Origin: a phage
Assembly: GCA_012646185.1 (NCBI GenBank)
Contig: GCA_012646185.1_4706.1
Length of the DNA stretch: 64,000 nucleotides
Reading direction: 5' to 3' (one strand)
The translations under genes and the position numbers were made by a program. The notes beneath the pieces were generated by a model. The model was given only the letters and a program-made list of their open reading frames with translations. It did not search any database and had not been told where the DNA came from. Positions 15,359 to 37,233 of the stretch are shown here, piece after piece. How positions within the stretch are numbered: position 1 is the first letter of the stretch; each line of letters starts with the position of its first letter.

Positions 15359-16933
15359 TTACAATTCAAAATCTTCATCGATAACACGCTGGGTAAGCAC
15401 TTTGTCGCTGAAGAACTCCACCTTGCGCTGATGGTATTTACGGTGCGCTTCGATAGAAGTACATACCAGATACCAGAACGTTGGCGTCATTCCTTCAAAC
15501 TTCCCTTTCAGCTGACGCAGTCGCCCCAACACCTGAATGTTGCCGGTTCGTGACCCCATCGCTAACGTCATGAACGTCATCACCAAGTCAGGGAGGTCGA
15601 TACCTGTACCTGCCGATTTCACCGTCGTAACGCTAATATCGTTATCCAGCAAGACCATGAAATCTTCTTCAGCAGTATAAGGACCGATCTCTAGCTCAGG
15701 AATACGCTCACTGAGATAGTGCGACAACGACTTACACATATCAACGGTTGCACAATACACCAGCATCTTCATGCCTTCCTGATACTGGTTCATGAAACCT
15801 TTGATGATAACGGTATAGATGAAGTTAAAATACGCGAGTTTGAGTTGCTTGTTCTTCATGATAGACTGTTCGAATATCGTGTGTGAATAAGCTCCGCCAA
15901 ACCCTTTGTATCTGACTTTATCTGTACTGCGTAGTCGATATGTTACCGCATTTACCGCAATATATTTCTTGTATTCGCCTTTTGCATAACGGGCTTCTTT
16001 CGGATACATCAAATACAACATCTGTTCGATAAACGGATCATCGGACACCGCCGTTGCCGACAGATAAATGATTTCCGGAATACTGGCGTAACACTTGACC
16101 TTAAACAAGAAATGCAATGCTTCGTGACACTCGTCATGAATCAGCAAACCTATGCCGGTCTTTTCCCAAAACTCAGCGGGATGAAAGGCATATGGCGCAA
16201 CGCAGTTATTCTTCTCGTAGTCCGCAATATAACGTTGGAACATGTTCAAGGAGAACAATGCGATTTTGAAGTCGAGCTCACCTTGTTCAACCAAGGTTTG
16301 AAACTCCAGCATGCTGTAACGAGGAATGTCGGGATGTGGTGGATCCTCCTTAGCGTTCCCGCGTATCTCAATAACGTCCCCTGGTTCCATCCCGAAGAAG
16401 TTCAGCAGTGAGCTTCGCCAACCTGGCATGTATCTCGGCGACAGAATGATACCCGTCCGTACACCACGTCGGAAGGTAATCTCCTGCGACATGGCCGTTT
16501 TTCCTGACCCCGTTTGAGCGGTGTTTAGGCTCATTCTGAAGGGGGTATCCTTACCCCCGTCCATGTACTCCAACCATTCTTGCTGATCTTGACGCCATGG
16601 AAACTTCCATTTCTTTACGAACTCCACTTCTTTACCTGGTACCGGATCGTGATAGACGATTTCCAACCACTCTTTTCGTATCCCTCGGGAAAAGATAAAA
16701 TCCAAAAACGATTTCAACTGTTCACGGAGTAAGTATACCTCGCTATAATCGCTTCTCGCCGCGGCATACGTGTTTATGGTATCGGTAACCATTCTCCGTG
16801 TACGAGGGTCACGCCGTTTCCTCAGATGCAAACAACGGTCTCGAAGGTAATGGCCTATCAAATGGGCAAATCGAAGTCCGTATCCGCTCAGCCTCATGCC
16901 ATGCGAGAAGACGTCGATACGAGCTAACTTCAT
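15359..16933 (-). CDS. SF2 DExH-box helicase
   Basis: 524-aa ORF; Walker A AQTGSGKT, motif II IHDECHE, SAT, motif VI QVLGRLRQ. Confidence 0.65.
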   Translation of the reverse strand: MKLARIDVFSHGMRLSGYGLRFAHLIGHYLRDRCLHLRKRRDPRTRRMVTDTINTYAAARSDYSEVYLLREQLKSFLDFIFSRGIRKEWLEIVYHDPVPGKEVEFVKKWKFPWRQDQQEWLEYMDGGKDTPFRMSLNTAQTGSGKTAMSQEITFRRGVRTGIILSPRYMPGWRSSLLNFFGMEPGDVIEIRGNAKEDPPHPDIPRYSMLEFQTLVEQGELDFKIALFSLNMFQRYIADYEKNNCVAPYAFHPAEFWEKTGIGLLIHDECHEALHFLFKVKCYASIPEIIYLSATAVSDDPFIEQMLYLMYPKEARYAKGEYKKYIAVNAVTYRLRSTDKVRYKGFGGAYSHTIFEQSIMKNKQLKLAYFNFIYTVIIKGFMNQYQEGMKMLVYCATVDMCKSLSHYLSERIPELEIGPYTAEEDFMVLLDNDISVTTVKSAGTGIDLPDLVMTFMTLAMGSRTGNIQVLGRLRQLKGKFEGMTPTFWYLVCTSIEAHRKYHQRKVEFFSDKVLTQRVIDEDFEL

Positions 16934-18936
16934 AACGTGATTACATCCTCCGGTTTAGGTTCTTTACGCGGTAACAGCATGTAGTCGATCGGATGATCTG
17001 GCTTCATGGTTGGGATATAACTGTTCGGGTTTTGGAACGCATCCAGTTGCTCTTGGTGAGCGAACTTCATACTCAAGGAGCGCATGTTCATGTTCTTCTT
17101 GAAGGTACTGAAGTATCGTGTTGTTCCCTGTTTCGGCATGCGATAATCTTTCGTGTGCGGCGAACGAATCATGCTGGCGTAGAGAATAACATCGAGATGC
17201 GAAAGGTTCATTCGCAGACGCTGAGCGCACAGACGATGCCAATAGTACAGCACGTTTGCAACTTCTTCCGGCGTTGCTTCGTCTTCCGAGAGGAATCCGG
17301 CACTGAAAGAACCTTTCCCGAATTTGAACTCACGTTCGATTTCTTTTGCGTATTCCATCATGTTTTTGTGGATTAACGGCATCTGGAATAACGTACGTGA
17401 ATTGTCCCAATGTTTCAAGTCGAAAATCACAATCCCGTCAGGCGTCACTTCCCAGCTATGGCGTTTAAGATAACGGATAAACGCTTTACTCGGTACAACA
17501 GGACGACCGCAGAAATCGAAATTGACTTTGAGCTTACGATAGCTTTCATCTTTCCTGTCGTAAATCTCCATATCGCAAAGCGTCATGTTGAACAGACGCT
17601 GTGGTATCAGCGAACTGATTTCTTCCGCTTCGGCTACGTCGTACAACATGTTAGCAAGACCTAACTTCATCTTAATCAACACGTGTTTACCTTTCAGCTC
17701 ACGTGCGAGTTTGATGTCGTTCATGTTCTGGCTGTAGCGAAGGATATGCTGATATTCCGGTGGGATTGGTGCTGTAGAGACCGTTGACGAACCATCGTGG
17801 TGTTTGGTAGAAAGAATGTTCTGCGTTACCTGTTGCGAGCAGGTACGCGCTGCACCATCGCCGACATTATCAGTCAATGCGAAGTTATGACTTAATTCAC
17901 CGTAACACGTTGTACATACCCCAGCAGGATCGGGATGATGACAATAGTTAACGGAGCGCATGCGTACCGTCGTGCCGATCAATTCTTTCATGTGTGGTTG
18001 TATCGCTACCAACGAACCGTCGTCACGAATAATGAATCGACCGTGGAAACCACGCAGGTCGGTCTCATCGCGGATTGGCATCGGGATGGTCTCTTTACTA
18101 CCACAATCACCAGGATGAAGTCGTTGTACAACCGCTGTCGCTATCTGAAGTTCACGACCGAAATATTCAGACTTTTTAATCTGCTCTTTGTTGAACAGCA
18201 ACGATTTCGCCGCAGAACGACTTTCTTTCAAGCTGTCAGGAAGAGAGATCAAACCGGCTGCGTACGACCGCATTACCGGATCGCGGAATATCTCGGAGTT
18301 AATATCAGTCAAGAATCCACGCATCCCAATACACTGTAGCACCTGCCCAATCGAAACGTGTTCGGTTCTTACCGCACGTGCGATAGGGTTTGCATGTAAC
18401 GTTTTATCGGTGCTCAGTACCTTCGTCAGTTTCTTGTATGCGCTTTCAATGCCTTCGCGGGTGGGTTCCGCTTCGGCGATGATTTTCTTAACTTCGGGGT
18501 GTACAGTAATCTGATAAAAATCATCCGCGCAAATCGTTGTTACGTATTCCTCCAACGCATACGTAAAGAAGTTATATACATTGTTAAACATATCGAACAG
18601 TGCTTTCCAGAGAACCTCACGATTCTCTTGTGGATAAGCATACATGCATTGACGATACGCTGCGCTTTGCAACGCAACCGATGAACCCGCTGTGAACTTG
18701 CGTTTATCGACCAGGTTCTCTTTTGTCAATGGTGTCTCAGGATACATGCGATGTACAGACCAGTGCATGTAACTAAAGAAAATGCGTCGCGCACGTAATT
18801 CATGAACGCCATCGTCCATCTCGATATATACACGGTCATTAGGCTGTGCCCATTCGAACACCTCATCAACCGGCCAATGCATAAGCTCGCGTGCCCTCAC
18901 ACGACGTTTCGTGGTGGTTGTCTGTGTTGTAATCAT
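16930..18936 (-). CDS. multisubunit RNA polymerase beta-prime, C-terminal fragment
   Basis: 668-aa ORF; VRMRSVNYCHHPDPAGVCTTCYGEL...GDGAARTCSQQVTQNILSTKHHDGS matches the conserved beta-prime region RS...C...GVC..CYG...GEA.G..AAQSIGEPGTQ.TMRTFH.GG. Confidence 0.6.
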   Translation of the reverse strand: MITTQTTTTKRRVRARELMHWPVDEVFEWAQPNDRVYIEMDDGVHELRARRIFFSYMHWSVHRMYPETPLTKENLVDKRKFTAGSSVALQSAAYRQCMYAYPQENREVLWKALFDMFNNVYNFFTYALEEYVTTICADDFYQITVHPEVKKIIAEAEPTREGIESAYKKLTKVLSTDKTLHANPIARAVRTEHVSIGQVLQCIGMRGFLTDINSEIFRDPVMRSYAAGLISLPDSLKESRSAAKSLLFNKEQIKKSEYFGRELQIATAVVQRLHPGDCGSKETIPMPIRDETDLRGFHGRFIIRDDGSLVAIQPHMKELIGTTVRMRSVNYCHHPDPAGVCTTCYGELSHNFALTDNVGDGAARTCSQQVTQNILSTKHHDGSSTVSTAPIPPEYQHILRYSQNMNDIKLARELKGKHVLIKMKLGLANMLYDVAEAEEISSLIPQRLFNMTLCDMEIYDRKDESYRKLKVNFDFCGRPVVPSKAFIRYLKRHSWEVTPDGIVIFDLKHWDNSRTLFQMPLIHKNMMEYAKEIEREFKFGKGSFSAGFLSEDEATPEEVANVLYYWHRLCAQRLRMNLSHLDVILYASMIRSPHTKDYRMPKQGTTRYFSTFKKNMNMRSLSMKFAHQEQLDAFQNPNSYIPTMKPDHPIDYMLLPRKEPKPEDVITL

Positions 18937-19081
18937 TATTACTTTCCGATTTAAATGGTTTTATCATACGGTTTACCAATTCCGTTGGAATTTACTATCA
19001 TCATGATAGCATCGGGAATCCCTTCTCTTAGGTTATGTAGGTGTTAATATATCTCCACTGCCGGAGTAAAAGTCGGCAACA

Positions 19082-19567
19082 TTACCCGGCTTTCTGTCGT
19101 AGAGCGTACGGATCCATAGCGTCTGATATATCCGAAACAACCGTGAGAATGAAGCCCTTTATCTGTCTCACTTCGGTCACACGCAATCCTTTATCGTTAC
19201 GGTATACGTTTTCTTCACCAACCAACTTTGGTCGGATAACATAAACGCCATCAACATACGGGAATGTCGAATACGGATAAACACCAATAGAAATGATGTT
19301 TGGATAATCGCCTCGAAGGTCGCGTCCGAACTTATCAACTCGACCATAAATCGTTCCATCCGCACCTTCCACCTCAATGAGATCATTTCGAATATCCTGA
19401 AATAGCTGTTCTAAGGTGTCGGCGGGGTACGCGTATGCGACGCCTAACGCACGATCCTCGATCGTTTTGACATTGAATCCGTTAAGCCAAACAATCCGTT
19501 CATTCGCCCATGTTTCTTCATATACCGTTAACCCATCGCCGTATATGTTGGCGTGTGCTATCTCCAT
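19082..19567 (-). CDS. hypothetical protein
   Basis: 161-aa ORF. Confidence 0.45.
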   Translation of the reverse strand: MEIAHANIYGDGLTVYEETWANERIVWLNGFNVKTIEDRALGVAYAYPADTLEQLFQDIRNDLIEVEGADGTIYGRVDKFGRDLRGDYPNIISIGVYPYSTFPYVDGVYVIRPKLVGEENVYRNDKGLRVTEVRQIKGFILTVVSDISDAMDPYALRQKAG

Positions 19568-19681
19568 AATCTCATTTCCTCTTCTACGTAGAAATAGATG
19601 ACATGTTGGATATACGTTGCCTTTGCATATATTGCTTTATTTCCGTCAGAAATAACGGAAAATAAAAACAACGACATAATT

Positions 19682-19711
19682 CCCTCCCACCTCCACATGG
19701 GAGAGGGAGGG
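19682..19711 (-). terminator. GC-rich stem-loop ccctccc...gggaggg
   Basis: Inverted repeat downstream of gene 19725-20087. Confidence 0.4.
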
Positions 19712-19724
19712 TTATTCGTGTTTA

Positions 19725-20087
19725 TTATTCTACGCTGTCTTCTTCCGTATCTTCCTCTTCAGAACCATCGAATGTTTTCATTGTGACGGTGGTATCCCAG
19801 TTAGCCGCGTAATCGGCCATCGCTTCACGCAGCGCTTCTTCACCAGCATCACCAGCCAGGTCAAGTACAACCAAACCTTGTGCGACGTTTTGAGCAACGG
19901 TATCAATAACGGTTGCATCTTCTTCAAAACTACGTACGGGTTCAATGGTACCTACATCAACAGCATAGTTCGTGGTTGCTGTAAACACGGCGACTTGTAG
20001 CGCATTGCTATCTTCATCATGCAGTGCTGCTTCAATACCGATTGGACGAGCCAGTTCTTGCAGTGTTAATTTGCGAATTAAGTTCAT
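19725..20087 (-). CDS. hypothetical acidic protein
   Basis: 120-aa ORF, D/E-rich C-terminus. Confidence 0.45.
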   Translation of the reverse strand: MNLIRKLTLQELARPIGIEAALHDEDSNALQVAVFTATTNYAVDVGTIEPVRSFEEDATVIDTVAQNVAQGLVVLDLAGDAGEEALREAMADYAANWDTTVTMKTFDGSEEEDTEEDSVE

Positions 20088-20119
20088 TATGTTTTCCTCA
20101 GGTGAATGTTAGCAATCGT

Positions 20120-20545
20120 TTAAAACTTTAAAACTTTTTCGATACGATGGTTGACGAGTTCATTGAACGACTCTTCAGCTTGTTCGATGATTTCATCAAC
20201 GTCGATATCTAATTGTTGGGGTTGGATAACATGCTCTTTCATGGTTTCCAGCCAGTATTCGGCTTTAATCATGACGTTAGCGACGTGTTCGACCTGGCTG
20301 CGTATGTCGACGATCTGGCAGTCAGGATTGTTAATATCGATGATGTGTCCGTGGTGGTTGATAAAACCTAGCTTATTTGATGCCCTTACCGCATCGCGGG
20401 TAAGTTCTTGCAAGATTAAATTATTAACGTAGTTCACTGCTACGGAACGATTTTCGTTATCACTCATACCAGGGATCCTCTTTAAGTCATCACATTCTAG
20501 TGTTAAGCAGTTAAAATAAACCGTTCCTTTTATCAGCATAAACAT
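20120..20545 (-). CDS. hypothetical protein
   Basis: 141-aa ORF. Confidence 0.45.
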   Translation of the reverse strand: MFMLIKGTVYFNCLTLECDDLKRIPGMSDNENRSVAVNYVNNLILQELTRDAVRASNKLGFINHHGHIIDINNPDCQIVDIRSQVEHVANVMIKAEYWLETMKEHVIQPQQLDIDVDEIIEQAEESFNELVNHRIEKVLKF

Positions 20546-20585
20546 CCTCCTCCCACCACATGGGCAGGAGGAGGCGTAATATGCA

Positions 20586-20996
20586 TCAGAAAGGAGGACG
20601 ATCTTTAAATTCTAGCAACGTGTCTTCGAAGCAAGCGATAAGTTCAGACTGCAATTCGGTACGGCCTTGTTCACCGAAGAGTTCCAGCAACATTAACCCC
20701 CGAGCGGTCTTCGTAGCAACCTCTTCGCAGATGCGGAGATCGTGAACTTCATCATCGCCGACATCTTTACGTAACTGCGCTGCAATGGGCTTAAGATTGC
20801 CGTTTTCATCGTGTTCGTCACGAAATGCATCATAAGCCGCATCGATGTTCGCGATCCGTGTCAACCCTTCAGAATCCCGCCAGTCTCGATATAATCCAAG
20901 AAGACGGTTATGATTCTTCGTTTTGACGTTCGGTGCCGGAAGGTTGCGCAACAGATGTGGTGTAATCATTGCTATCACGCTATCCGAATGATCCAT
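20586..20996 (-). CDS. hypothetical protein
   Basis: 136-aa ORF. Confidence 0.45.
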   Translation of the reverse strand: MDHSDSVIAMITPHLLRNLPAPNVKTKNHNRLLGLYRDWRDSEGLTRIANIDAAYDAFRDEHDENGNLKPIAAQLRKDVGDDEVHDLRICEEVATKTARGLMLLELFGEQGRTELQSELIACFEDTLLEFKDRPPF

Positions 20997-21007
20997 CGTA
21001 TACCTCG

Positions 21008-23176
21008 TTAGCTTTCGCAGTCATCTGCGTCGATGATTTGTCCGCCAGCAACGTTCAGTTGATGATACAGAATCCTCAACGCACGGTTGCCGCCAATGGG
21101 ATACTTCTCGAAGTTGGTTGCAATAGGAATCGCTGACGGTTTATCGGTCGCATAGATGCTTTCAGTGATGCTATCCACCTGTTTTGGATTGTTCGCATAA
21201 TCCATAAAGACGCTCGCGAACCATCCGCCAGCAAAGGCGGTAACTTCGCGATGTTCAGATTCACCACAGTAACGAGTTGGTTGCTCTTTACCCGGAGAAC
21301 TGTATTTATCGCTATTACTGAGTTTCGACGGTAGTCCATGCGCTTGCAGTTTAGGGATGCCCACCGCTGACCAGTCGTTCGCCGTCTTCTCCAACATCAT
21401 GATGTACGTGTCACCGATCGCAATATCGTTCTTGGTTGTCCGCCACTGCCCAGAACGCCCACGATACCGTACAGGACCTTTCTTCAACGGGAACTCACGA
21501 ATCAGATTCTCCATACGTTCTGAACCTGCTGCGATACTGTCTGTCGGGATATAAACTTCCGTACCGTGGCGTTGTACGTACCGTAAATGATCCCATTTAT
21601 CCTCATCCGTGATACAGTATTTTTCAACAACCTGTTCCACGAATTCAGGACTGACGATATAGTAGTAGCGCATCAGTGTGTTCCAAGCGGTCTCCAGATC
21701 GCCTGCATCCATCACCGGTTTCAGTTCACGCATGATCTGATCACCAACGCCGTTGATGTAAGGTGCGTTAACACGACTTAAACTCATCCTTTTGATTACC
21801 GTACTATCGTCGAACATGAAGTCCGCAACGTTACCCCATTGGTCAACCGGCATTTCATCGTCTTCCATGATGTCGGTTACGACGAATTTATCACCCGCCA
21901 TACCGGTGAATTTAAACCCGATACCTGGAACAACGTCGTACGTGTACGTGATGGTCACACGCCAATCATCGAGATTCTCTTTACGATAATCGCGGGTCGG
22001 TAACACATGACGTAGCTGTCCGTTGGGATTGCGGATATCAATACCGTGTTCAGCATCAGCCAGGTTCAACCACCACATCACCGTTTGATGATGACGTATC
22101 GGCGTACCAACGCGTTCACGTTCGTACTTACGAACAGCATCCTGAATTCGGGTGTAAAGCAAACCAATCGCGTTCTCGTATTTCAGGAATTGACGATACG
22201 GAGGACGCATCTTCTCTTCCATCATAATCGCACGCTCGCGGGCTTGACGTCCAGAACGACGATGCCGGTCGCTGACAACATCGATATCCGTTACACGCGC
22301 ATTCGGTTCCGCGTAAGTGAGGTCGTCGTAAACATAATCCACGCGCTGAAGATTACACGTCATCATGTCAACAACGCTGAGGATAGGATCGATTTCGCGT
22401 GTTGCTGCAAGTAACCCATCCTTACGAATACGCTCACCGTTCTCGGGTATTGCTTGATATACCTCATCGTCACCGTAGAGATTGATTGGGTATCGTGATT
22501 TACCTGATGTGATCGTCCGCTTCTCAATGCCGGTACTGGTGAAATGCTTCAATACACCACGACGGGCAACACCACCATCCTCGATACACTGATAGAAGCT
22601 ACCGAAACACACTTTGCAATCGCGACCGTAACCCCACTCGCGCGTTTCTTGATTGATCGCTGGGCTTTCCATCAAACGAGAATATCGCGGTACGATCTGG
22701 CCTCGACGAAGGGAATGGAACAAGTTGGTTGGTCGAAAACGGAAACCGTACTGCTGATGCATGATGTGATGCTCAGGCACTTCAAGCAAGCGTAGCTCGT
22801 GACGGTTACCATCCTCTTGGTTTTCATACAGCACGTAATGCATCGTGTTTGTTTTGATGCTGTTTGCTGTATGCCCCGGTTGGAAACGTGGGATGATATC
22901 TATGATGCGAGATTCGACTGGAAACTCTACTGACCACGTGTTCTGTCCGTACTGGTATTCGATCCCCGTCGTCAGTCGGGACGGTTTCGCATCTTTGATA
23001 ACCAACGCTTGGCTAAGATGTCCACCAAACATCGCAGCGCGCTGTGCTGAGTTATAATGCAGTAGCCCGTTAAGTCCAGTCCCTACGCCAGTATACTCCT
23101 GTTTAATGGGAATGATTTTACCTTCAGCGATTGCCTGCTTCACAGATTCATAAAGAGGTTTTTCTTTATAATGCAT
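21008..23176 (-). CDS. multisubunit RNA polymerase beta, C-terminal fragment
   Basis: GMAGDKFVV...EDDEMPVDQWGNVADFMFD...IKRMSLSRV resembles the beta catalytic region GDK.AGRHGNKGV...EDMP...VD.V.NP..VPSRMN; start moved to internal ATG (MHYKEK) preceded by aggaag. Confidence 0.55.
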   Translation of the reverse strand: MHYKEKPLYESVKQAIAEGKIIPIKQEYTGVGTGLNGLLHYNSAQRAAMFGGHLSQALVIKDAKPSRLTTGIEYQYGQNTWSVEFPVESRIIDIIPRFQPGHTANSIKTNTMHYVLYENQEDGNRHELRLLEVPEHHIMHQQYGFRFRPTNLFHSLRRGQIVPRYSRLMESPAINQETREWGYGRDCKVCFGSFYQCIEDGGVARRGVLKHFTSTGIEKRTITSGKSRYPINLYGDDEVYQAIPENGERIRKDGLLAATREIDPILSVVDMMTCNLQRVDYVYDDLTYAEPNARVTDIDVVSDRHRRSGRQARERAIMMEEKMRPPYRQFLKYENAIGLLYTRIQDAVRKYERERVGTPIRHHQTVMWWLNLADAEHGIDIRNPNGQLRHVLPTRDYRKENLDDWRVTITYTYDVVPGIGFKFTGMAGDKFVVTDIMEDDEMPVDQWGNVADFMFDDSTVIKRMSLSRVNAPYINGVGDQIMRELKPVMDAGDLETAWNTLMRYYYIVSPEFVEQVVEKYCITDEDKWDHLRYVQRHGTEVYIPTDSIAAGSERMENLIREFPLKKGPVRYRGRSGQWRTTKNDIAIGDTYIMMLEKTANDWSAVGIPKLQAHGLPSKLSNSDKYSSPGKEQPTRYCGESEHREVTAFAGGWFASVFMDYANNPKQVDSITESIYATDKPSAIPIATNFEKYPIGGNRALRILYHQLNVAGGQIIDADDCES

Positions 23177-23207
23177 AGGACTTCCTATTATCGAATTGAG
23201 GTACGTC

Positions 23208-23561
23208 ATGTCTAACACGCCCCTGAACGACTTTCTTAAGACAAACCCCGATGACCTCATCCACGATCTTGATTTCAGGAACGTTGTTGAGATGCATCTG
23301 GAATATTTCAAAAATGCCGGACTGGTCTCTACGATAGACATACCACCCGAACGCGCCTACGAATTCGATGGTAACTTTTATGGATTGTGTCGTGTTCTGC
23401 TCGGCGAGGGTAGCGAACCAATGCACTGGATAACCATGAGACTCAATGGTTATCGCGACCCTACGGAATACACCGCCGATGTTCTAACCATGAAGATTGT
23501 CGATACAAGCGCAATCAACACATTAAAACAACAGTACCGCACAATCCACTACAGCGCTTAA
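23208..23561 (+). CDS. hypothetical protein (plus-strand gene embedded in minus-strand block)
   Basis: ORF with gaggt RBS-like sequence before ATG (MSNTPLND); stem-loop 23568-23595 follows. Confidence 0.4.
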   Translation: MSNTPLNDFLKTNPDDLIHDLDFRNVVEMHLEYFKNAGLVSTIDIPPERAYEFDGNFYGLCRVLLGEGSEPMHWITMRLNGYRDPTEYTADVLTMKIVDTSAINTLKQQYRTIHYSA

Positions 23562-26549: not shown

Positions 26550-26550
26550 T

Positions 26551-28137
26551 TTATTTTTTTCCTCTTAAATTTACTACGTGTTCATTTAATCGAACAACTA
26601 ATTGCACAAGCTGCTGACGGATATCTGCTGGACAAAGCATCAATCCTTTACGGTCAGCTGGGACTTTCTCAAGGATTTCCGGGCCTGCTGCTGAAACATC
26701 CCAGTCCCATTCACAAAACGCATCGGCCACCATGTTAATACCGACAACCGGTAAAGTTGTACGTTCATCTTCATACATGGCGTGTGGATACAATTTATTG
26801 ACAGTAATGATCTCCTGTGGTTTTAATTGGTGGATAATCTGATAAACATCGTCGCGTTTGACCTGGATACCTACGGTCAGCGCTGCCAGTTGAGGAAAAC
26901 CCCAATGGTCTAATAAGCAAGCTGCAATCGCTAACGCTTTTGCTTGATGCACGGCTTCAATCGGTGCCAGACTTCTCGCCGGAAGATGGCTATCAAGCAA
27001 CCATTGTGCCAGTGCTCGGCATCCACGGTTGATTGGTTTTAACTCAACGGTGTCATCATGTTTAGCGTACGTGTATCCGTCGTAACGTTTTGCGATACGC
27101 GCATACATGTCTTCAACTTTACCGTAAGGTGCCGTTTCGTCGACGTCGTGCAACACACGTTCCATCTGGGTAAGATACGCGATATCAAGAATGAGTACAC
27201 GCGGTGAACGTTTATCTTTCACCATCAACGCATCAATCACGCCTTGACTGTCTTCATCTTGCGCGTTCCCTCGTGGGGTTTTCTCACGAATCGGTCCGCT
27301 GAAACGTCGTTCCGTACAAAGGTTATTCACATAGCTAAAGATCAGTGTTACCAGATGCGTACAACTCACCAACACCCCATCTTTAACGACAGGCTGTACG
27401 GCTTGGTCCAAGTCGCGTACGGCGAGACGGCGGACGATGGCTTGTGAACGCAACCAGCCGGGCACTTTCTCCGTCGACATGTAATCCACGGTCATCGACA
27501 GCGTGATCTTTTTATCACCCGTCTGTGCGCGGATATAGTCTTCCAGTCGGTCGTAAGCGGCGATATCGTGAATGCGTGTTTTATACATCAACGACATAGC
27601 CACTTCTTCTTTACGAACCGTTCCGTACGTTTTCCCTGCGTCAATCAGAAACTCTGCCCAAATCGGCACCATCAGACGGACGTAGATCGCTAACGCCGTT
27701 AACTCAACGTAATCATTTCGTAAATAGGTTTTCTCAGGAATATCATCCTCACCTAATGTTGTTTTCATGTCCGGCGGTAATTTTACCCAACCCGGGGTAT
27801 TACACAACGCCAGAATCTCTTCGTACACAACCGGTTTGTAAATTTCACCAACAGCGCGACTCAACTCCTCCATTTGTTGTTGTGGAGCAATGTAGTTATC
27901 CATCGCTTCACGTGCTTTAACGAACCCTTCGAAGATGTCGTCAATTCGACGTGGGTTCTTTTGTTCTATCCAGGCGAGATACTTGTTAATCTCCCGCATC
28001 TGATTGCTAGCCATATCCCCATCAATCTTGATGTAACCCTGACCTGAAAATTCCACAGTACGTCCATCACGGTGTTTGATGAGATAGTGATCCAGCTTTT
28101 CTTTTCCTTGCGTCGTAATGACGGGCACTATGTGCAT
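26551..28137 (-). CDS. hypothetical protein
   Basis: Start moved to internal ATG (MHIVPVITTQ); the Arg-rich N-terminal extension in the track looks non-coding; early-promoter-like motif about 60 nt upstream. Confidence 0.5.
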   Translation of the reverse strand: MHIVPVITTQGKEKLDHYLIKHRDGRTVEFSGQGYIKIDGDMASNQMREINKYLAWIEQKNPRRIDDIFEGFVKAREAMDNYIAPQQQMEELSRAVGEIYKPVVYEEILALCNTPGWVKLPPDMKTTLGEDDIPEKTYLRNDYVELTALAIYVRLMVPIWAEFLIDAGKTYGTVRKEEVAMSLMYKTRIHDIAAYDRLEDYIRAQTGDKKITLSMTVDYMSTEKVPGWLRSQAIVRRLAVRDLDQAVQPVVKDGVLVSCTHLVTLIFSYVNNLCTERRFSGPIREKTPRGNAQDEDSQGVIDALMVKDKRSPRVLILDIAYLTQMERVLHDVDETAPYGKVEDMYARIAKRYDGYTYAKHDDTVELKPINRGCRALAQWLLDSHLPARSLAPIEAVHQAKALAIAACLLDHWGFPQLAALTVGIQVKRDDVYQIIHQLKPQEIITVNKLYPHAMYEDERTTLPVVGINMVADAFCEWDWDVSAAGPEILEKVPADRKGLMLCPADIRQQLVQLVVRLNEHVVNLRGKK

Positions 28138-28213: not shown

Positions 28214-28341
28214 TTTTGGATTCCGGCTGAGTTATCGCTCAGCATGCAAGGCATCCCGCCGAAGCGAGACACCTTGCACTAACGGAAAATATTCGCGTTA
28301 CCTTCTGAATCGAAGACTCAGAATGCGATGCTAAAGCGTTA

Positions 28342-29130
28342 TTAGAACGCTAAGCCATCAAAGGCTATGGACGGATCGTCGTCGTCATTTGCGCTTGGCG
28401 CATCCCAACGGGTATCAGGGGCCGCTGAAGCCGAACTTGATGCGTTAGAGTTACCGTTGTACTGGCCATTACCAGCATTACGGTTACCGCCGCCGTTGTT
28501 ATTGTTACGGTTATAGCTATTGTTGCCATTACTTACGCTACGGCTTTCACCGTCGAAATTGGTTGCGAGGATGCTCGGCAACACTGCGCGATGAATACGT
28601 ACAAATTCCAACGCACAAAGCGGAGAAACAACCCCGATCTGTAAAGGTTGCCCAGACTCATCAACCAGAGCGTGGAAACGCGGCGGCTTGAATACGAATT
28701 GGATGTTCGGTTTTTGGTACGCTGTTACAGCGATATATACCGAACCATCATCGTTCTTACCAACCCATGTTGTACTTTCGGTAATCTGTTTCTTCTTACC
28801 TGGGTTATTGCGATCGTCGATAACCTTTTCGTTCTTCATCGCAAAACGTTGGCCTGGTTTACCCTTAGCAACCTGCTCGAGGATCGCAAGCAGGTTATAG
28901 AACGCGTATGAACTCATGCGCGCCCAAATGCTTTCAGCGCGACCCTGCTGGTCTTTACGACCGGTGTAAACCGTGATACGCGGTTGATTCTTAGCAACGC
29001 TAATTTTCAATGAGGGGATTGAATTACCGCCCTCAACCTTTTCGTCCGCCCACAGTTTCCAGTTGTTGTCGTCATACGCTGTAGGAATAATGTTTCCTTG
29101 TGGTTTACTGCCCGAATTCCAATTGCTCAT
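28342..29130 (-). CDS. hypothetical protein with SSB-like architecture
   Basis: 262-aa ORF; N/G-rich low-complexity linker then acidic tail ...NDDDDPSIAFDGLAF. Confidence 0.35.
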   Translation of the reverse strand: MSNWNSGSKPQGNIIPTAYDDNNWKLWADEKVEGGNSIPSLKISVAKNQPRITVYTGRKDQQGRAESIWARMSSYAFYNLLAILEQVAKGKPGQRFAMKNEKVIDDRNNPGKKKQITESTTWVGKNDDGSVYIAVTAYQKPNIQFVFKPPRFHALVDESGQPLQIGVVSPLCALEFVRIHRAVLPSILATNFDGESRSVSNGNNSYNRNNNNGGGNRNAGNGQYNGNSNASSSASAAPDTRWDAPSANDDDDPSIAFDGLAF

Positions 29131-29203: not shown

Positions 29204-30037
29204 TCAGCGGAACATGTCCAACAGAAAACGTTTTGCGAAGGGGTCACGTAACTGGTTGACACCAAAGCGTGTACGGTCTTCTGTTGTTAATGGATTCCAT
29301 TGACTCTGTTTCGCAAGATCTAACAGCATCCTTTTTATTTTCACCGGCCCACTGTTGAACTGTACGGCTTGGTCACCGAACGTTCCCAACGTCATCTTTG
29401 TAAATGGAAGATTCGCAACCTCTGGACGATCCCCACCAGTAAGTTTGGTCGACCACTGATGTTTTCGTTTCAAGGTTCCAGTATGGCTTTCTACCAAAAT
29501 AAGTTCACCAAAACCGGTTCTTGCCAACAAGTCAGAAACATAGTGCGTGGTGATATACGATGTCTTGGTTATCGTGGGTAATTTACAATCCATCGATTCG
29601 ATATTAGGGAGTCGATCTACAGACGCCATCAACCCACGATAAAGTGTAGCGAGTCCTTTTTGTTTTTCGGTGTGTGGCTCCTTATGTATAGCGTGCGGAT
29701 AAACACGCTTTATTGACGCATAGGTTGGCGCATATATCCGCAAACGAATATGGGGAACGAGTTCATTCACCAACTGCCTTAGCTGCAGTAACTCGTTTTG
29801 AAAATCCCCTGTTATCATCGATAACGGTAATTTATGTTGTTCAACGTCTTCAAAGCTTTCAACGAAATTGCGTGCTAAAGTACGCAGGTTGAACAACCAA
29901 TCCATCGGTGTTTCTGGCTGTTGCTGTACTGCTGATAGTGTTGCTGACGTCCCTACCGATAAAGGATAATCACCTAACGTGCGGGCGTACATATTGCTCA
30001 TACCCCACAACTCCTTCTTATCATGGCAACGTATCAA
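29204..30037 (-). CDS. hypothetical protein
   Basis: 277-aa ORF. Confidence 0.5.
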   Translation of the reverse strand: MIRCHDKKELWGMSNMYARTLGDYPLSVGTSATLSAVQQQPETPMDWLFNLRTLARNFVESFEDVEQHKLPLSMITGDFQNELLQLRQLVNELVPHIRLRIYAPTYASIKRVYPHAIHKEPHTEKQKGLATLYRGLMASVDRLPNIESMDCKLPTITKTSYITTHYVSDLLARTGFGELILVESHTGTLKRKHQWSTKLTGGDRPEVANLPFTKMTLGTFGDQAVQFNSGPVKIKRMLLDLAKQSQWNPLTTEDRTRFGVNQLRDPFAKRFLLDMFR

Positions 30038-31163
30038 GCCAAGCAGAAACCTTTAAGGCATCAACGTTCGGGTATTTATTACGAATGCGTTCGACCAACA
30101 AACGCTTAACGTTGTCCTTTGTCAAGTCCCCACCTTTCTCGATAACGTTATTGACAAAACTGTTCTTTAATAGCGACTGGTTGTTCTTGGCATCCGTTTT
30201 AATTGACCAGACAAAACCTGGATACAAAGAAGGGATAGAACGAAACGTTTTCGCCGCATCGTCTTCCTTATCGCAGCGTATTCGGATATGATCACCCTTC
30301 TTCAATGGAGCCAATTCCCGTTCCAACACACGGACAATTTCATCTCCAACAAGACCATGCAGTTTTATCGTCTTGTAGACATCTGCTTTCTTGTTTTCAA
30401 CAAATTCCCACTGGTCGTTAAACGTTTCCGTTAACATATAACGGAGATACCCTTTTGGACCTTCTTCACCGTGCGCCAAGCGACCGAACGAACCGCCAAC
30501 CATGATACGTCCTTTCTGGGATTGTAAGTGGATGTGCCCGCTCACGACCCACCCTTGGGTCTTCTCCACCATTGCGTTATACGCATCGCTGCTATGAACA
30601 CATGTTGCTTTTAACGCTTCTGGTGGAAGCTGATATTCAAACGCGCCATGCATCAGAATGAAGTCCGGCGATCCCTTCTCATCAATAAGTCGGTTCACAG
30701 CCGACAACGTCACATCCGGATCGTGGCTGTAGTTATCTGGAAGATAGAGCACTTTTAAACCAAAGTCTTCATCAACCATGCAGAGATCATCGTAATAACG
30801 AACTTTCGCTCCTATCTCCATGACCTCGTTCTGTTCAACGAACCACTGGCTTTGCTTCTGGTCGTGTAAATTGGTACCCTCAAGAAAGATCAACGTAATA
30901 TCGTGTTTTCTTGCATACCGTAACAACCAGGTGCCCCAGGCACGAACAGCAACCACGTCACTCGTCACAAACGTCGTGATACGATCGAAGACATCACCGC
31001 TGAACGTAATCACATCAAGCAGCGCAGGATCTTCTTTTGTAATGTAATAACGCAGTTGGCTAATCAGGTTTACTGTCGGTGTTTGACGATGGATAAAGTG
31101 AATATCCGACAAATTGATTCCACGTAATACCCCAGGCGTTTTATTTCGACTGAAGTCTCGCAT
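30021..31163 (-). CDS. Mre11/SbcD-like metallophosphoesterase nuclease
   Basis: 380-aa ORF; motifs LSDIHF (D-x-H), FSGDVFD (GD), LEGTNLHD (GNHD), LMHGAF, VSGHIH (GH-x-H). Confidence 0.6.
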   Translation of the reverse strand: MRDFSRNKTPGVLRGINLSDIHFIHRQTPTVNLISQLRYYITKEDPALLDVITFSGDVFDRITTFVTSDVVAVRAWGTWLLRYARKHDITLIFLEGTNLHDQKQSQWFVEQNEVMEIGAKVRYYDDLCMVDEDFGLKVLYLPDNYSHDPDVTLSAVNRLIDEKGSPDFILMHGAFEYQLPPEALKATCVHSSDAYNAMVEKTQGWVVSGHIHLQSQKGRIMVGGSFGRLAHGEEGPKGYLRYMLTETFNDQWEFVENKKADVYKTIKLHGLVGDEIVRVLERELAPLKKGDHIRIRCDKEDDAAKTFRSIPSLYPGFVWSIKTDAKNNQSLLKNSFVNNVIEKGGDLTKDNVKRLLVERIRNKYPNVDALKVSAWLDTLP

Positions 31164-32333: not shown

Positions 32334-32346
32334 GAGGAACTCCTCT

Positions 32347-32914: not shown

Positions 32915-33379
32915 TTAAACCAAAGCTGCGATAACGTCGTTAACATTACGGCCTCGCAACTCTGCCGCTAAACGAATAACTTCATCCAGGGAACGGTTTG
33001 TACGAATCTTGGCCACTTTCCAATTTTCAGGATACTGTTCGAAGTTAAGCAACCAAGTCATTACCTTTGCTTGTTCCATACCGTTGAGTTTGATTGTCGT
33101 GCGCGGATTGGCTTTGAACCACTTCTTGCTCAGCTGCGCCATACGGCGAACAGGGTAAGCGTAAGCGCGAGTCCAGTCTTTGGACAGATTGTCGAGTAAT
33201 TCACAGTAGCTGTTGTCGTAGTCTTTGTTGATACGACGTAATAACCAGTTGGCGGTCATCTGATAAAGTTTATCATCTTCACGTAACCGCATACCTGCTA
33301 CTGCTAAATAAATGATAAGACCTGCGCCCAGGATGAGAGACAGGATAAACAGAATTTGGGTTTCTTGTGCTAAAGTCAT
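32915..33379 (-). CDS. membrane-anchored protein (single N-terminal TM helix)
   Basis: 154-aa ORF; hydrophobic stretch ILFILSLILGAGLIIYLAVAG; early-promoter-like motif about 90 nt upstream. Confidence 0.5.
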   Translation of the reverse strand: MTLAQETQILFILSLILGAGLIIYLAVAGMRLREDDKLYQMTANWLLRRINKDYDNSYCELLDNLSKDWTRAYAYPVRRMAQLSKKWFKANPRTTIKLNGMEQAKVMTWLLNFEQYPENWKVAKIRTNRSLDEVIRLAAELRGRNVNDVIAALV

Positions 33380-33463
33380 TTTACTATCCTCGGATTTCGT
33401 TAGGATTTAATTTCCAATATAAGGACAATGTGATATGCCTTATACAGTCGATTGATGTTGTAC

Positions 33464-33490
33464 ATCACTTAAGTAATATAGCCGTGAAAA
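33464..33490 (-). promoter_or_regulatory. early-promoter-like motif (minus-strand TTTTTCACGGCTATATTACTTAAGTG)
   Basis: Contains TATATTAC; near-identical to the copy at 10185-10208. Confidence 0.5.
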
Positions 33491-33498
33491 ATGTTGGA

Positions 33499-34335: not shown

Positions 34336-34378
34336 AAACCCTCCCCGCCTTATGCAGGGAGGGCAGCCATTAAATGGA

Positions 34379-35017
34379 TTAACCTAATTTACCACCGGCA
34401 ATGTTGGTGAAATCTTCGCCATCAGGAACTTGCAGTAGGATACGTGCCATGTCCCAGTTGGTTAATGTAATTGCTTTATCATCGATACTCAGTTCTGGTA
34501 GGTCGAGTTCATGATCATCAAACTCGTAGGAAATACTCCACGTTTCATCTGTTTTAGGATCGGTTATCAACACACCGTCTGTTACACGCATGTAGTCCGG
34601 ATGCAATTCATTACTGAATGTGCTGAACGGATCGGTGTAACATTCAGCATACCCCTCGATCTGCTGACGTTGCGCCTTCGTACGTAATTCAGGGCACGCC
34701 ATAATCAGTTGTCGAGATATGCCGTTTGCAGCACGGAAGTCTTCCACGGTGTTGCATGGCATAACCACATCGTCATGGAAGATGTTCTCCGATTGTCTCA
34801 ACAGCGTCTTACGGAGTTCAGCATAGTTTATCTGATTGAATGCGTCGAACGTTGCTAACGATTCAGCGTAAAAATGCTTTACGTGTTCGCTTGCACTGCC
34901 GAGGCTATTCATCAGCTTGTGGCCGTACTCCATAAAGCTTTTATCGAGACCGGAGGACATTTCTCCGAACCTCAGTGCACGATAACTGTCTCGTCCACCT
35001 GTAAATATTTGCGCCAT
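34379..35017 (-). CDS. hypothetical protein
   Basis: 212-aa ORF directly downstream of the beta-prime exons. Confidence 0.5.
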   Translation of the reverse strand: MAQIFTGGRDSYRALRFGEMSSGLDKSFMEYGHKLMNSLGSASEHVKHFYAESLATFDAFNQINYAELRKTLLRQSENIFHDDVVMPCNTVEDFRAANGISRQLIMACPELRTKAQRQQIEGYAECYTDPFSTFSNELHPDYMRVTDGVLITDPKTDETWSISYEFDDHELDLPELSIDDKAITLTNWDMARILLQVPDGEDFTNIAGGKLG

Positions 35018-35032
35018 TACAGGCGTCCTCCT

Positions 35033-35257
35033 TTAGCAATGGTTGTTAGTTGCTTCTATTTCATCAAGATACGGTTCTACGTCATCGCCCTCCACGAATT
35101 CGTTGAACCAACAGTCAATGGTAGAAATAACCGGTGACTGGTGTTCACATTTCTTAGATACCTTAAAAGGCACGTTATTATCCATCATACCGAGTTCGGG
35201 TCGAAAACGCCCGAAATGTTTCGCAGTCCAAATGTCTGGGACGATATGGTTGTTCAT
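35033..35257 (-). CDS. RNA polymerase beta-prime N-terminal subunit, exon 3 (proposed)
   Basis: Encodes MNNHIVPD...GMMDNN, matching the beta-prime sequence that follows NADFDGD (MAVHVP / MNLHVP, then LMMSTNN); exact 5' boundary uncertain. Confidence 0.5.
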   Translation of the reverse strand: MNNHIVPDIWTAKHFGRFRPELGMMDNNVPFKVSKKCEHQSPVISTIDCWFNEFVEGDDVEPYLDEIEATNNHC

Positions 35258-35617
35258 CAAAATCTTCAGTATGAATCGCTACTTCATACCCGCAGCATTA
35301 CCTGCAGCTCCTGGTGTTACCAGGATGTTGAGAGTATATCATGCCCATATTCCAAATGGAACGTAGGACTTCCGCGCTGGATCTCGCTTGAGACCACTTA
35401 CTCGTTGAACGTTCTCCTAAACGGAGCTTCGCTGCTGATTGGACATTGTTACGTACGGTAGGCGTCCCATTAAAGGGATTTTCATTGAAGCCGCGTACAT
35501 CCGTTACCTTGTTTCTACCTTATCGGTTCCTCTTACGAGGCGTAACGGCTTTAGCCTATTCCAGCAATTCACGGAATGCATATTCTCCTTTTCAGGAGAT
35601 AAGGCCATGGCTCTGGC
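35258..35617 (-). ncRNA. putative self-splicing intron 1 (ORF-less, group I-like), boundaries approximate
   Basis: About 360-nt hairpin-rich sequence between DFDGD codons and resumption of beta-prime homology; tandem relative of intron 2. Confidence 0.5.
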
Positions 35618-35632
35618 ATCACCGTCAAAGTC
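35618..35632 (-). CDS. RNA polymerase beta-prime micro-exon encoding DFDGD (proposed)
   Basis: Minus-strand codons GAC TTT GAC GGT GAT; flanked by the two intron copies; exon 1 ends ...GYNA. Confidence 0.5.
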
Positions 35633-35982
35633 CACATATCTTCAGTATGAATCGCTACTTCATACCCGCAGCATTACCTGCAGCTCCTGGTGTTACCAGG
35701 ACGGAGAGATCATCTCATCACCCACGAAGGGTGTTCCGCGCTACCCTCAGCGAATTCGAGGGACATGATCGTTGAACCTTCCACCGATAATCGGTGGCTA
35801 GGCTGCTGATTAAACATTGTACGTTGGGGTGGCATCCTGGTTCAGGACTGTCGTTGAAGCCTCCCAACATCCACTCACTTATTTCCGCCTTATCGGCTCC
35901 CATAAGGGCAGAGTGGCTTTAGCCCGTCTCAGCAATTCACGGAATTCAAGCTCTTCCTTTCAGAAGGCAGGGCCTCATCTGA
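35633..35982 (-). ncRNA. putative self-splicing intron 2 (ORF-less, group I-like), boundaries approximate
   Basis: Follows the codon for Ala of ...KGYNA (exon ends in U); RNA ends in G just before GAC of DFDGD; track ORF reads 17 codons into it then stops. Confidence 0.5.
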
Positions 35983-37233
35983 AGCATTGTATCCCTTAAG
36001 GATCATCACGCTTAACCCGATGGTGTTATCCTGCGGATCGCGTTTAACCTTGGTGATTTCAAGACATTGGTTACTGCTTCGGTCAAGTGATGGGTTTCGA
36101 ACAAAGCCGCACACAATCCCATCGAACGGCGTATCAGCAATAAGCTCATCGTGCAGCTCGCTCATCATCGGATGATAATTACGGACATGTTCCGCAACGA
36201 ACGCACGCGCTGCTCTCGGTGAGTAACCACGATGGAATAACTTGGATTGGATATGTTCTTTATTGGTTAAAGTAAATGGTGCGTATGGGAAATGCAGATG
36301 ATAATAACGATGGTTCGCTGTTATCGAACTGATTACGGTACGCGTGGTGAATGGATGTAATGTACCTAATATGTTTTTACGTGTAATACCTTTCTTCTTA
36401 CCGATGAACTCATCGAAAATCGCTGCGTGGTATTGCAGTAGCTTCAATTGCACTTTCGCCATCCAGTTTTCTTTCTTTCTGGCGCTCAAAGGTGTTGTTG
36501 GATGATAGATACTGTTCAACGTACCAATAGCATCGATCGCACCTTCCATTTTGCTATCCGCATAACGACCGGTCGGCGTATTTTCGATAACGAACATCAT
36601 GGCTGCAGGAAAGCTGATATACTGACTGAAGAACTTATCACGATGGATACGGATGAATTCTCGTAGCGTGTCAACTTTCTCCATGTTCTTCGGTCCACGT
36701 AACGTCGGTCCTTTATACAAGATCTCCATGATGCGATCGAAGTTCTGTATAAAGCTATTTACGCCACGCCGTATCCCGAATACATCGAATTGCTGCTCCA
36801 GATAGTTCTTGAGTTCGATGGGTCGTTTTACATTTGGACGGTAACTGGCATCAATGAGCCACGTCATCGTTTCAAAGCTTTTGATATTCAACTCGCTTGC
36901 CAGCACGAGATGGACCAACGGGTTAATGAACGCATCGATTCCTTCAGGAACGCGCGCCCAAACCGTCGAACGAATCTCTTGTTCTGCTGGGTAGGTTACA
37001 ACCGTTTTACAGTTTGGACACACCGTGCCGAGTAGCTCACCACGATTGTAGAAACCACAACCACATTGTGGTGTGATATCCAACGTATCGCTGGAGTAAA
37101 CACGGGTGATAAAACTGTTTAATTTCTTCTTCTCTTCGACGACTTTTGTATCGTAATCATTCAACAAAATCGGCGTGAAAGGAAGTTCTGCGAGCTGTCT
37201 ATCGAAACTCACGATATCGAGCATGATGGCCAT
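35983..37233 (-). CDS. RNA polymerase beta-prime N-terminal subunit, exon 1
   Basis: Zn-finger CGCGFYNRGELLGTVCPNCKTVV (compare CxCGKY...C..CGVEV); NPSLDRSS (compare NRQPSLHK / NRAPTLHR); IGLSVMILKGYNA (compare LNLSVTSPYNA) immediately before the missing DFDGD. Confidence 0.65.

Follow-up and report, generated by a model that had tools for sequence, protein, structure and literature searches.

A chimallivirus RNA polymerase gene of the Goslar type, probably interrupted by two group I introns around its catalytic aspartate codons

Introduction

The DNA considered here is a stretch of 64,000 nucleotides (nt) from a phage, contig GCA_012646185.1_4706.1 of the GenBank assembly GCA_012646185.1, which is referred to below as the window, and the genes of interest are those of a multisubunit RNA polymerase found between positions 16930 and 37233. 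Of the five subunits that make up the non-virion RNA polymerase (nvRNAP) in a chimallivirus of the Goslar species, four are very probably encoded in the window, with the gene for one of these four, beta'-N, carrying two group I introns and being spliced twice. The polymerase itself is already known, as it is the Goslar enzyme and a member of the phiKZ nvRNAP family, and introns in chimallivirus polymerase genes are already known as well. What was not found, either in the searched literature or in the Goslar annotation, is (i) a second intron in Goslar, (ii) paired paralogous introns without an open reading frame (ORF) around an 18-nt catalytic exon, (iii) relatives with three introns and (iv) the clustering of five insertion sites.

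Source of the sequence and its relatives

When positions 34900-37300 and 14000-38999 were compared with 50,697 phage records using megablast, a single phage matched, namely Escherichia phage vB_EcoM_Goslar (MK327938 / NC_048170), with 96.4% nucleotide identity over 98% of the 25-kb query. The window corresponds to approximately 132.6-197.7 kb of Goslar, the order of the genes in the nvRNAP block is the same, and the proteins of the region highlighted by the first-pass annotation are 97.5-100% identical to Goslar gp164, gp165, gp171, gp173, gp174, gp175 and gp247 (99.5-100% when gp164 is set aside). Goslar is a nucleus-forming jumbo phage (chimallivirus) of Escherichia coli, and because it is so close, the genes in question can be set against a genome that is annotated and has in part been studied by experiment.

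Alleles for comparison came from related genomes in IMG/VR and in metagenomes, which carry different sets of introns at the beta'-N site. In the following, L001 denotes the Goslar stretch of NC_048170 (L001 3134-3373 and 5151-6422 being 167622-167861 and 169639-170910 of that record), L115 and L136 both denote IMGVR_UViG_3300045988_173921, L135 denotes IMGVR_UViG_3300011560_000001 and L141 denotes ERZ1026903.5 NODE_5, of 239,899 nt.

A polymerase gene in three exons

The first-pass annotation had placed beta'-N at 35033-37233. Its two ends, a start codon at 37233 and a stop codon at 35033-35035, hold, but the gene is not one ORF; it consists of three exons and two introns (a caret marks a point of insertion):

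37233-35033, minus strand: nvRNAP beta'-N gene, three exons (PHROG 2987; PDB chain 7OGP_A)
35983-37233, minus strand: exon 1, 417 codons, ending ...LKGYNA with U as its last base (PHROG 2987 positions 1-417 of 478)
35633-35982, minus strand: predicted group I intron 1, 350 nt, lacking an endonuclease ORF, situated after the Ala codon of N-A^D-F-D-G-D (RF00028, 23.1 bits)
35615-35632, minus strand: exon 2, an 18-nt micro-exon, GACTTTGACGGTGATGCC, encoding DFDGDA (placed by intron-free alleles and the length of homologues)
35258-35614, minus strand: predicted group I intron 2, 357 nt, lacking an endonuclease ORF, situated after the Ala codon of D-G-D-A^M-N-N-H (RF00028, 27.4 bits)
35033-35257, minus strand: exon 3, 74 codons and the stop codon, MNNHIVPDIW... 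(PHROG 2987 positions 426-475)

Specifically, the ORF that begins at 37233 runs 17 codons into intron 1 and stops at 35929, and no minus-strand ORF of at least 80 amino acids exists between 35929 and 35017. The window has a single 15-mer that encodes DFDGD, at 35632-35618, and its genomic frame is not that of exon 1; a further 357 nt separate the exon with this motif from the 74 conserved C-terminal codons (35257-35036), the pieces of the gene being kept apart by two direct repeats. The aspartates of DFDGD are the triad that holds the catalytic Mg2+. Judging from the reading frames, both insertions would have to be excised for the frame to be restored (...GYNA-DFDGDA-MNNHIVPD...), and no functional beta'-N would arise until two ribozymes had excised themselves and so restored the codons for the Mg2+-binding aspartates. 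The spliced ORF has 497 codons (...LKGYNA^DFDGDA^MNNHIVPD..., containing NADFDGDAMNNH) and is identical to uninterrupted natural alleles; the predicted junction peptide is GYNADFDGDAMNNHIVPDIWTAK. Joining exon 1 directly to exon 3 also gives an in-frame protein, one that does not contain DFDGDA.

The junctions between exons and introns are fixed, because natural alleles exist that lack each intron. Goslar and L115 are uninterrupted across the site of intron 1 (aat gcc gac tt), and L141 (positions 4312-4690), which has intron 1 only, encodes DFDGDAMNNH without a break (gac ttt gac ggt gac gcg atg aac) and is a natural allele free of intron 2. Intron 1 is found in both L135 and L141, and exon 1 of the window is 99.8% identical to exon 1 of Goslar gp247. 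Three different intron configurations splice to one and the same peptide, LKGYNADFDGDAMNNH, and in other chimalliviruses homologues without an intron have NADFDGD-[Q/A/M]-L... at an equal distance from a conserved Pro-Asp.

The insertions as probable group I introns

Among all 4227 Rfam families, the only matches with E<1 in the 64 kb are the two insertions, both to RF00028: intron 1 with an E of 2e-3 locally and 0.12 over the whole window, and intron 2 with 1e-4 and 6e-3, respectively. Further evidence comes from scoring of the structure, for which intron 1, intron 2 and two copies of intron B (the orthologue of intron 2 in Goslar and other relatives, here called B-type genomes) were aligned to the group I topology, i.e. 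P1, P2, P3, P4-P6 with extensions, P7 (in a pseudoknot with P3), a hairpin between P7 and P3', P8 and P9-P9.2. Pairing was found in 99% of the 406 cells scored, and double compensatory changes in 29 of 103 pairs, compared with 1-3 when the partners are slid by 1-3 columns and with 9.8 +/- 2.4 in column shuffles (none of 500 reached 29). When ten sequences from eight genomes are considered, a sample that comprises few lineages and three intron types, 35 of 93 predicted pairs are compensatory. More specifically, P7 occurs in three Watson-Crick versions (GAUCA/UGAUC, GAGUA/UACUC and GAAUA/UAUUC), and the six-pair hairpin that follows it is wholly compensated in intron 1 relative to the others. 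G is the last base of both introns, and P1 of intron 1 has a U.G pair at the 5' splice site (gcU^ with the G of GAGGC).

There is no room for an endonuclease gene in either intron, the longest stop-free stretch in any frame being 56-74 codons. The longest intron ORF with a start codon has 61 amino acids, compared with the 336 of Goslar gp186, the short ORFs not having been scanned against protein families; and the HNH gene of the other Goslar intron, intron A (gp186), is absent from this locus of the window. From the pattern of base changes we conclude that both introns are maintained as folded ribozymes, and both would be self-splicing.

Several observations weigh against this interpretation. 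Both introns score below the Rfam gathering threshold (23.1 and 27.4 as opposed to 50 bits; Goslar intron A, with 46.9 bits, also falls just short of it). In both the window and L135, intron 2 has a C-G pair (gcC^) at its 5' splice site, where five of five B-type genomes have the canonical U.G (gcU^), and replacing this near-universal U.G by C-G slows the first splicing step of group I ribozymes. The P1 helices are short, with 3 exon base pairs, and manual inspection for a P10 pairing that could guide the choice of the 3' splice site gave nothing convincing (a 3-bp possibility in intron 2 and none in intron 1), which together leave the accuracy of splice-site choice unexplained. Splicing, moreover, has been deduced from sequence, and in the phiKZ long-read transcriptome the splicing of the homologous gp56 intron went undetected under the conditions of that study (PMC10914365). 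To this last point it can be countered that the solved phiKZ polymerase contains a joined gp55/gp56.1 chain. As for the C itself, at 35615 in the window and at the equivalent position in L135, it is shared by two diverged genomes and is unusual for a group I intron.

The insertions might instead be inert repeats, signs of a decaying or broken gene, or an assembly artefact, so that the polymerase would either lack the subunit or contain it as separate peptides. Such a reading, which would agree with Rfam scores under the curated threshold and with the fact that gene callers and the Goslar annotation keep the pieces as separate ORFs, is nevertheless highly improbable. The same arrangement is present in the independent genome L135, which differs by 3.5% and whose stems show compensatory changes; covariation is seen in 29 to 35 base pairs; the exons are under strong purifying selection (99.8% amino-acid identity at ~98% nucleotide identity); an essential enzyme would, unspliced, lose its catalytic DFDGD; and phiKZ has a homologous intron at the adjacent codon, the joined product being present in the solved enzyme.

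The unusual C is also relevant to the length of exon 2. A first splice model with an exon of 15 nt, GACTTTGACGGTGAT (DFDGD only), was dropped in favour of 18 nt on the grounds of the intronless homologues, P1 of Goslar and the L141 allele. If it were correct, intron 2 would begin at 35617, after the U of gaU, giving DFDGD-MNNH; a U would be kept at position -1 in the window and in L135, and the product would still align to phiKZ gp55 with a one-residue gap. This shorter exon is improbable, however: (i) the natural intron-2-free allele of L141 reads DFDGD-A-MNNH, (ii) all B-type genomes show gcU^ with a clean 5-bp P1 including the U.G at that position, and not at gaC, (iii) by a manual check, the guide region has no G that could pair with the U of gaU without loss of the adjacent pairs, (iv) intronless homologues place one residue between DFDGD and the conserved L/M and (v) between exons 1 and 3 the PHROG profile has room for six positions rather than five.

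Identification of the polymerase subunits

Apart from beta'-N, three subunits of the enzyme are encoded in the window:

21008-23176, minus strand: nvRNAP beta-C, homologue of phiKZ gp71-73, uninterrupted here (7OGP_C, PHROG 3295)
16930-18936, minus strand: nvRNAP beta'-C, homologue of phiKZ gp74, 668 amino acids (7OGP_D, PHROG 3015)
26551-28137, minus strand: fifth nvRNAP subunit, phiKZ gp68 / AR9 gp226 type, 528 amino acids (7OGP_B/9RJS_B, PHROG 3209)

In sequence searches of the PDB, spliced beta'-N matches 7OGP_A ('PHIKZ055/PHIKZ056.1') with E 2.5e-73, exon 3 being aligned to the phiKZ gp55/gp56.1 chain as far as residue 495, and beta-C and beta'-C match 7OGP_C (E 1e-85) and 7OGP_D (E 1.6e-86); each beta/beta' fragment covers one phiKZ nvRNAP chain almost from end to end. 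The fifth subunit matches 7OGP_B/9RJS_B ('PHIKZ068') with E ~5e-28 over residues 20-517 of 521 (phmmer). All three beta/beta' fragments also match AR9 nvRNAP chains (E ~1e-13 to 1e-17), and there are weak direct matches to bacterial chains, namely to beta' (E 1e-3 to 1e-4, beta'-C at E 1e-4) and, by beta-C, to residues 1063-1241 of beta (E 6e-3). In the PHROG families named 'RNA polymerase beta subunit', the corresponding E values are 6.8e-115 for beta'-N (PHROG 2987), 1.5e-180 for beta-C (PHROG 3295) and 1e-169 for beta'-C (PHROG 3015), and the gene for the fifth subunit falls into PHROG 3209 (E 4e-68). Furthermore, beta-C is 100% identical to Goslar gp171 and the fifth subunit 99.8% identical to gp175. 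Pfam is not sufficient for such a purpose: RNA_pol_Rpb2_6 matches beta-C at E 5e-3, below the cut-off, and no Pfam match was obtained for beta'-N, beta'-C or the gp68-type subunit. Using Pfam alone as the profile test was rejected, this database being nearly blind here, and PHROGs and PDB sequence searches are required.

These results bear out the earlier proposal of a phiKZ-type polymerase encoded in separate fragment genes, each of which proves to be the counterpart of a 7OGP chain (A, C and D). The beta-C and beta'-C genes exist on the minus strand with the boundaries then given, and the short motifs by which they had been recognised are present, GMAGDKF at residue 428 of the 722 of beta-C (the GDK motif) and AGVCTTCYG, with its core GVCTTCYG, at residue 339 of beta'-C (the GVC..CYG motif); beta'-N carries NADFDGDA after splicing. 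The genes with these motifs reach E 1e-115 to 1e-180 against PHROG profiles and 1e-73 to 1e-86 against PDB sequences, well outside what chance would give, and the failure at profile level that was to refute the proposal did not occur. A guess that 26551-28137 might encode an accessory subunit turned out well too, this being the phiKZ gp68 homologue (7OGP_B, E 5e-28).

Two start codons deserve comment. The start of beta-C at 23176 is preceded by an AGGAAG ribosome-binding site, which the longer ORF to 23341 does not have. A plus-strand ORF at 23196-23561 (PHROG 3455, at the position of Goslar gp172) lies within the otherwise minus-strand block and overlaps the upstream extension of beta-C, which argues for the shorter start at 23176. 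In the fifth subunit, the ribosome-binding site favours 28137 over a GTG at 28272.

By homology with phiKZ and AR9, the four beta/beta' fragments would assemble into a two-barrel catalytic core of the cellular type, without alpha or omega, and the gp68-type protein would complete the five-subunit enzyme and supply promoter recognition; the assembly and the role of each subunit are assigned to the window by this same homology. The composition of nvRNAP and the role of gp68/gp226 have been described, AR9 gp226 being needed for promoter-specific initiation (PMC7598289), and at the level of the family the enzyme is expected to transcribe middle and late genes in the phage nucleus with no need for the host polymerase (PMC7598289).

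It counts against the interpretation given here that the 'non-virion' status rests on homology and synteny and not on proteomics. Chimalliviruses of the phiKZ type also have a virion RNA polymerase (vRNAP; phiKZ gp178, gp149, gp180 and gp80), both enzymes are made of split beta/beta' homologues, and the PHROG names do not separate them. That the fragments belong to the vRNAP is nonetheless hardly credible: the best PDB matches near full length are four nvRNAP chains, including the nvRNAP-specific gp68, and the gene order mirrors the nvRNAP blocks phiKZ gp54-gp74 and PhiPA3 gp53-gp67 (PMC11077065).

The missing subunit and the conserved gene block

The remaining subunit, beta-N, is not encoded in the window: phiKZ gp123 has no match there (best tblastn E 1.5), whereas it matches Goslar at 39951-41621 with E 4e-49. 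From the position in Goslar, the beta-N gene would lie outside the window, ~90 kb away. The first-pass annotation had suggested that 24963-26549 may encode the N-terminal part of beta or an accessory subunit. This gene adjoins that of the gp68-type subunit, is similar in size (528 amino acids) and is conserved in chimalliviruses. There is very little chance, all the same, that it encodes the missing beta-N fragment or another polymerase subunit, and the suggestion had to be given up. Its orthologue is Goslar gp174 / phiKZ gp69, which has been studied by experiment, and the identity to gp174 is 99.6%. Goslar gp174 is PicA, a protein that is essential both for the import of proteins and for maturation of the nucleus and is seen on the nuclear shell as a punctum (PMC11087766). 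The window gene matched no polymerase chain in the PDB at E<1 in the sequence search, and the phiKZ gp123 homologue of Goslar is to be found elsewhere. In PHROG it falls into family 3141, of unknown function.

The ORFs between the fragments, formerly regarded as unrelated, are in fact part of a conserved chimallivirus block that includes chimallin (ChmA), ChmC and PicA:

24963-26549, minus strand: PicA (Imp1), protein importer of the phage nucleus, not part of the polymerase, 528 amino acids (99.6% to Goslar gp174)
28342-29130, minus strand: ChmC, nucleus-associated RNA-binding protein, not part of the polymerase (position of Goslar gp176; PHROG 3284)
37326-39221, minus strand: chimallin (ChmA), nuclear shell protein, not part of the polymerase (Goslar homologue gp246 annotated as 'nuclear shell protein')

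Goslar gp176 has been named ChmC (PMC11077065). Chimallin lies directly upstream of beta'-N, as gp54 does of gp55 in phiKZ, and the block reads chimallin, beta'-N, ChmC, gp68-type subunit, PicA, beta-C and beta'-C, an order that mirrors phiKZ gp54-gp74 and PhiPA3 gp53-gp67. The conservation of this block in chimalliviruses is known, and that of PhiPA3 has been described as nvRNAP (PMC11077065).

No RNA polymerase family was found in ten large ORFs elsewhere in the window or in ten small ORFs between the fragments (others, e.g. 32915-33379 and several of 260-345 amino acids, lay outside the scan). Four small minus-strand ORFs of 161, 120, 141 and 136 amino acids, located at 19082-20996 between beta'-C and beta-C, have no PHROG match and are 'hypothetical' in Goslar. 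Further hallmark genes of chimalliviruses in the window are a DNA polymerase at 40637-42790 (PHROG 2927) and, assigned by their position in Goslar, the PhuZ tubulin (47179-48159) and the large terminase (55861-58092). A fourth hallmark gene, at 30021-31163, encodes an SbcD/Mre11-like nuclease (PHROG 100).

Comparison with known systems

The nvRNAP block of Goslar (gp165-gp175, gp185-gp186 and gp247) is that of the same species-level genome, with the same gene order and an intron B orthologous to intron 2. The difference lies in the first intron. Goslar has intron A (46.9 bits), which is inserted 5 nt further downstream (gac tt^c) and has an HNH/NUMOD gene in its P9 loop, while the window is without this intron and its endonuclease and has intron 1 at gct^gac instead. 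The middle exon is 13 nt long in Goslar and 18 nt in the window, and the 5' splice site is U.G in intron B but C-G in intron 2.

In phiKZ, the nvRNAP (gp55, gp68, gp71-73, gp74 and gp123; PDB 7OGP/7OGR) has the same five-subunit architecture and the same chimallin neighbourhood, at a protein identity to the window of ~25-45% (41-44% over the C-terminal region with tblastn). Its beta'-N gene is likewise split by an intron (gp55 + gp56.1), at the neighbouring codon (aat^gcg), and the introns of the window are homologous to this phiKZ intron in its 3' half (nhmmer E 2.4e-15). However, phiKZ has one beta'-N intron, with an endonuclease ORF or its remnant, and another intron in beta-C (gp72), as opposed to two introns in beta'-N, none in beta-C and no endonuclease in the window. 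Introns in phiKZ gp56, gp72 and gp179 had been predicted in 2002, according to the citation in PMC10914365, and PhiPA3 gp65-66 is interrupted by an intron (PMC11077065).

A further parallel is the group I intron of PhiPA3 gp210 (Birkholz et al., Science 2024, PMC11620839), which likewise interrupts an RNA polymerase gene of a chimallivirus at the codons for invariant aspartates of the active site and mediates interference competition between co-infecting relatives. It differs in that it interrupts the beta subunit of the virion polymerase at another site and encodes an active HNH nuclease, whereas the introns of the window encode none. Phage genes with several introns and a small exon between them, as in the window, include Twort orf142 (Landthaler & Shub 1999), the large subunit of ribonucleotide reductase (RNR) of phiNIT1 and the SIOphi terminase (PMC11878797), and skipping of an internal exon between neighbouring phage group I introns has been documented (PMC11878797). 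Those are other genes in other lineages; in the window the neighbouring introns are paralogous, their 3' ends agree in 64 of 64 nt and the exon between them is exactly the catalytic motif.

Relationships of the introns and a hotspot of insertion

Intron 2 and Goslar intron B occupy the same site and are 85% identical overall, the core reaching 90% and the first 65 nt 68%. The core of intron 1, a paralogue of intron 2, is 40-69% identical to that of intron 2, and the first 65 nt of intron 1 are 85% identical to Goslar B. In the 3' P9-P9.2 module (35262-35325 and 35638-35701), introns 1 and 2 are identical in 64 of 64 nt. This mosaic pattern of identity points to segment exchange between tandem copies. 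In L135, both intron copies have gained compensatory changes of their own in P9.2.

When an nhmmer sequence profile of the intron family was used for searching, it matched the 3' half of intron X (E 1.4e-12; an intron of the three-intron genomes described below) and the 3' half of an intron in T2P, a phiKZ-type phage (E 2.4e-15); intron A went undetected, and there was no further match in the window. Short probes were less useful. The 15-mer TTCCGTGAATTGCTG gave at least 120 unspecific matches in viral contigs and was discarded, and matches of a 25-mer probe for the 3' module in L131-L133 and L138 are coincidences in unrelated coding sequence (..GAAGKAAGMKKGGK..) with no polymerase homology.

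The genomes differ in their sets of introns as follows. L135 has the two-intron arrangement of the window, at 96.5% identity. Goslar has intron A after gac tt and intron B at the site of intron 2, with a middle exon of 13 nt. L115/L136, L137, L139 and L140 have three introns, namely X, an ORF-less A and B (L115 406-1527), with internal exons of 14 nt (ATAATGCAGATTT + ...) and 13 nt (CGACGGTGACGCT); these introns all end in G and the exons upstream of them all in U. Intron A of Goslar (L001 3727-5166, 1440 nt) corresponds to the 376-nt ORF-less version of L115 (774-1149) plus the HNH/NUMOD gene, set apart at the position of P9 by a stem of 12 bp (acgtgcaccgac ... gtcggtgcacgt), so that the two form a clean pair with and without the ORF. 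The phiKZ intron lies one codon upstream of intron 1, at aat^gcg. Taken together, the introns use five different points of insertion (ggg t^at, aat^gcN, gcN^gac, gac tt^c and gcN^atg), all in a coding stretch of 27 nt. Genomes that are ~96-98% identical across the region show at least four intron configurations. No intron-free allele of the Goslar type was found in the viral_contigs and genome_contigs sets with a degenerate 35-mer across NADFDGDAMNNH, metagenomes having been scanned once, with an intron probe, so that such an allele may have been missed.

Intron 1 and intron B are both inserted after a GCU that pairs with an (A)GGC guide, an arrangement compatible with, though no proof of, a move to a neighbouring site where the same short match to the guide exists. 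Synonymous differences crowd the last codons before the insertion sites (35983-36010 of the window compared with Goslar, L115 and L141), where ctt aag gga tac aat gct, ctc aaa ggt tat aat gcc and ttg aaa ggg tat aat gca are found as variants, while the remainder of exon 1 is ~98% identical across those alleles; this accumulation resembles what co-conversion tracts, or selection on the target sites of an endonuclease, would leave.

A possible, though rather doubtful, explanation is that introns of Goslar-like and phiKZ-like phages in co-circulation compete for the 27 nt coding for G-Y-N-A-D-F-D-G-D-A as a landing pad, with an ectopic origin of intron 1 and immunity to an endonuclease. Intron 1 would then derive from the lineage of intron 2 and B and would have moved to an ectopic site 18 nt upstream with the same 3-nt guide match (GCU), by reverse splicing or illegitimate recombination, followed by segment exchange between the tandem copies, which would explain both the identical 64-nt 3' ends and the B-like 5' end. 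The two ORF-less introns, by splitting the target on both sides, may confer immunity to the HNH endonuclease of Goslar intron A in co-infection, and if this is true the introns of the window would be the defensive counterpart to the 'weaponised intron' of PhiPA3 and phiKZ. Since exon 2 is 18 nt long, skipping it would give an in-frame but catalytically dead beta'-N, and the choice of splice sites could modulate the activity of the polymerase.

Consequences for annotation and significance

In the Goslar annotation, gp247 ('RNA polymerase beta subunit') runs into intron A, intron B (L001 3359-3713) is unannotated, and gp185, a 'hypothetical protein', is exon 3 of beta'-N together with five intron codons. 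With beta'-N of the Goslar type annotated as fragments in this way, automatic gene calls miss the catalytic motif entirely. The split polymerase in itself adds nothing new, and its practical value lies in correct annotation.

The layout of the introns is worth more, because near-identical phages are found that differ only in the introns at active-site codons, with one, two or three of them and with or without an HNH gene. Goslar is genetically tractable (CRISPRi-ART). Given this tractability, and given that an intron endonuclease is known to decide competition between chimalliviruses, this series of phages would allow direct tests. Questions that it could address include (i) whether introns protect the target site, (ii) how introns without an ORF persist and (iii) how near-identical ribozymes only 18 nt apart avoid skipping the exon between them.

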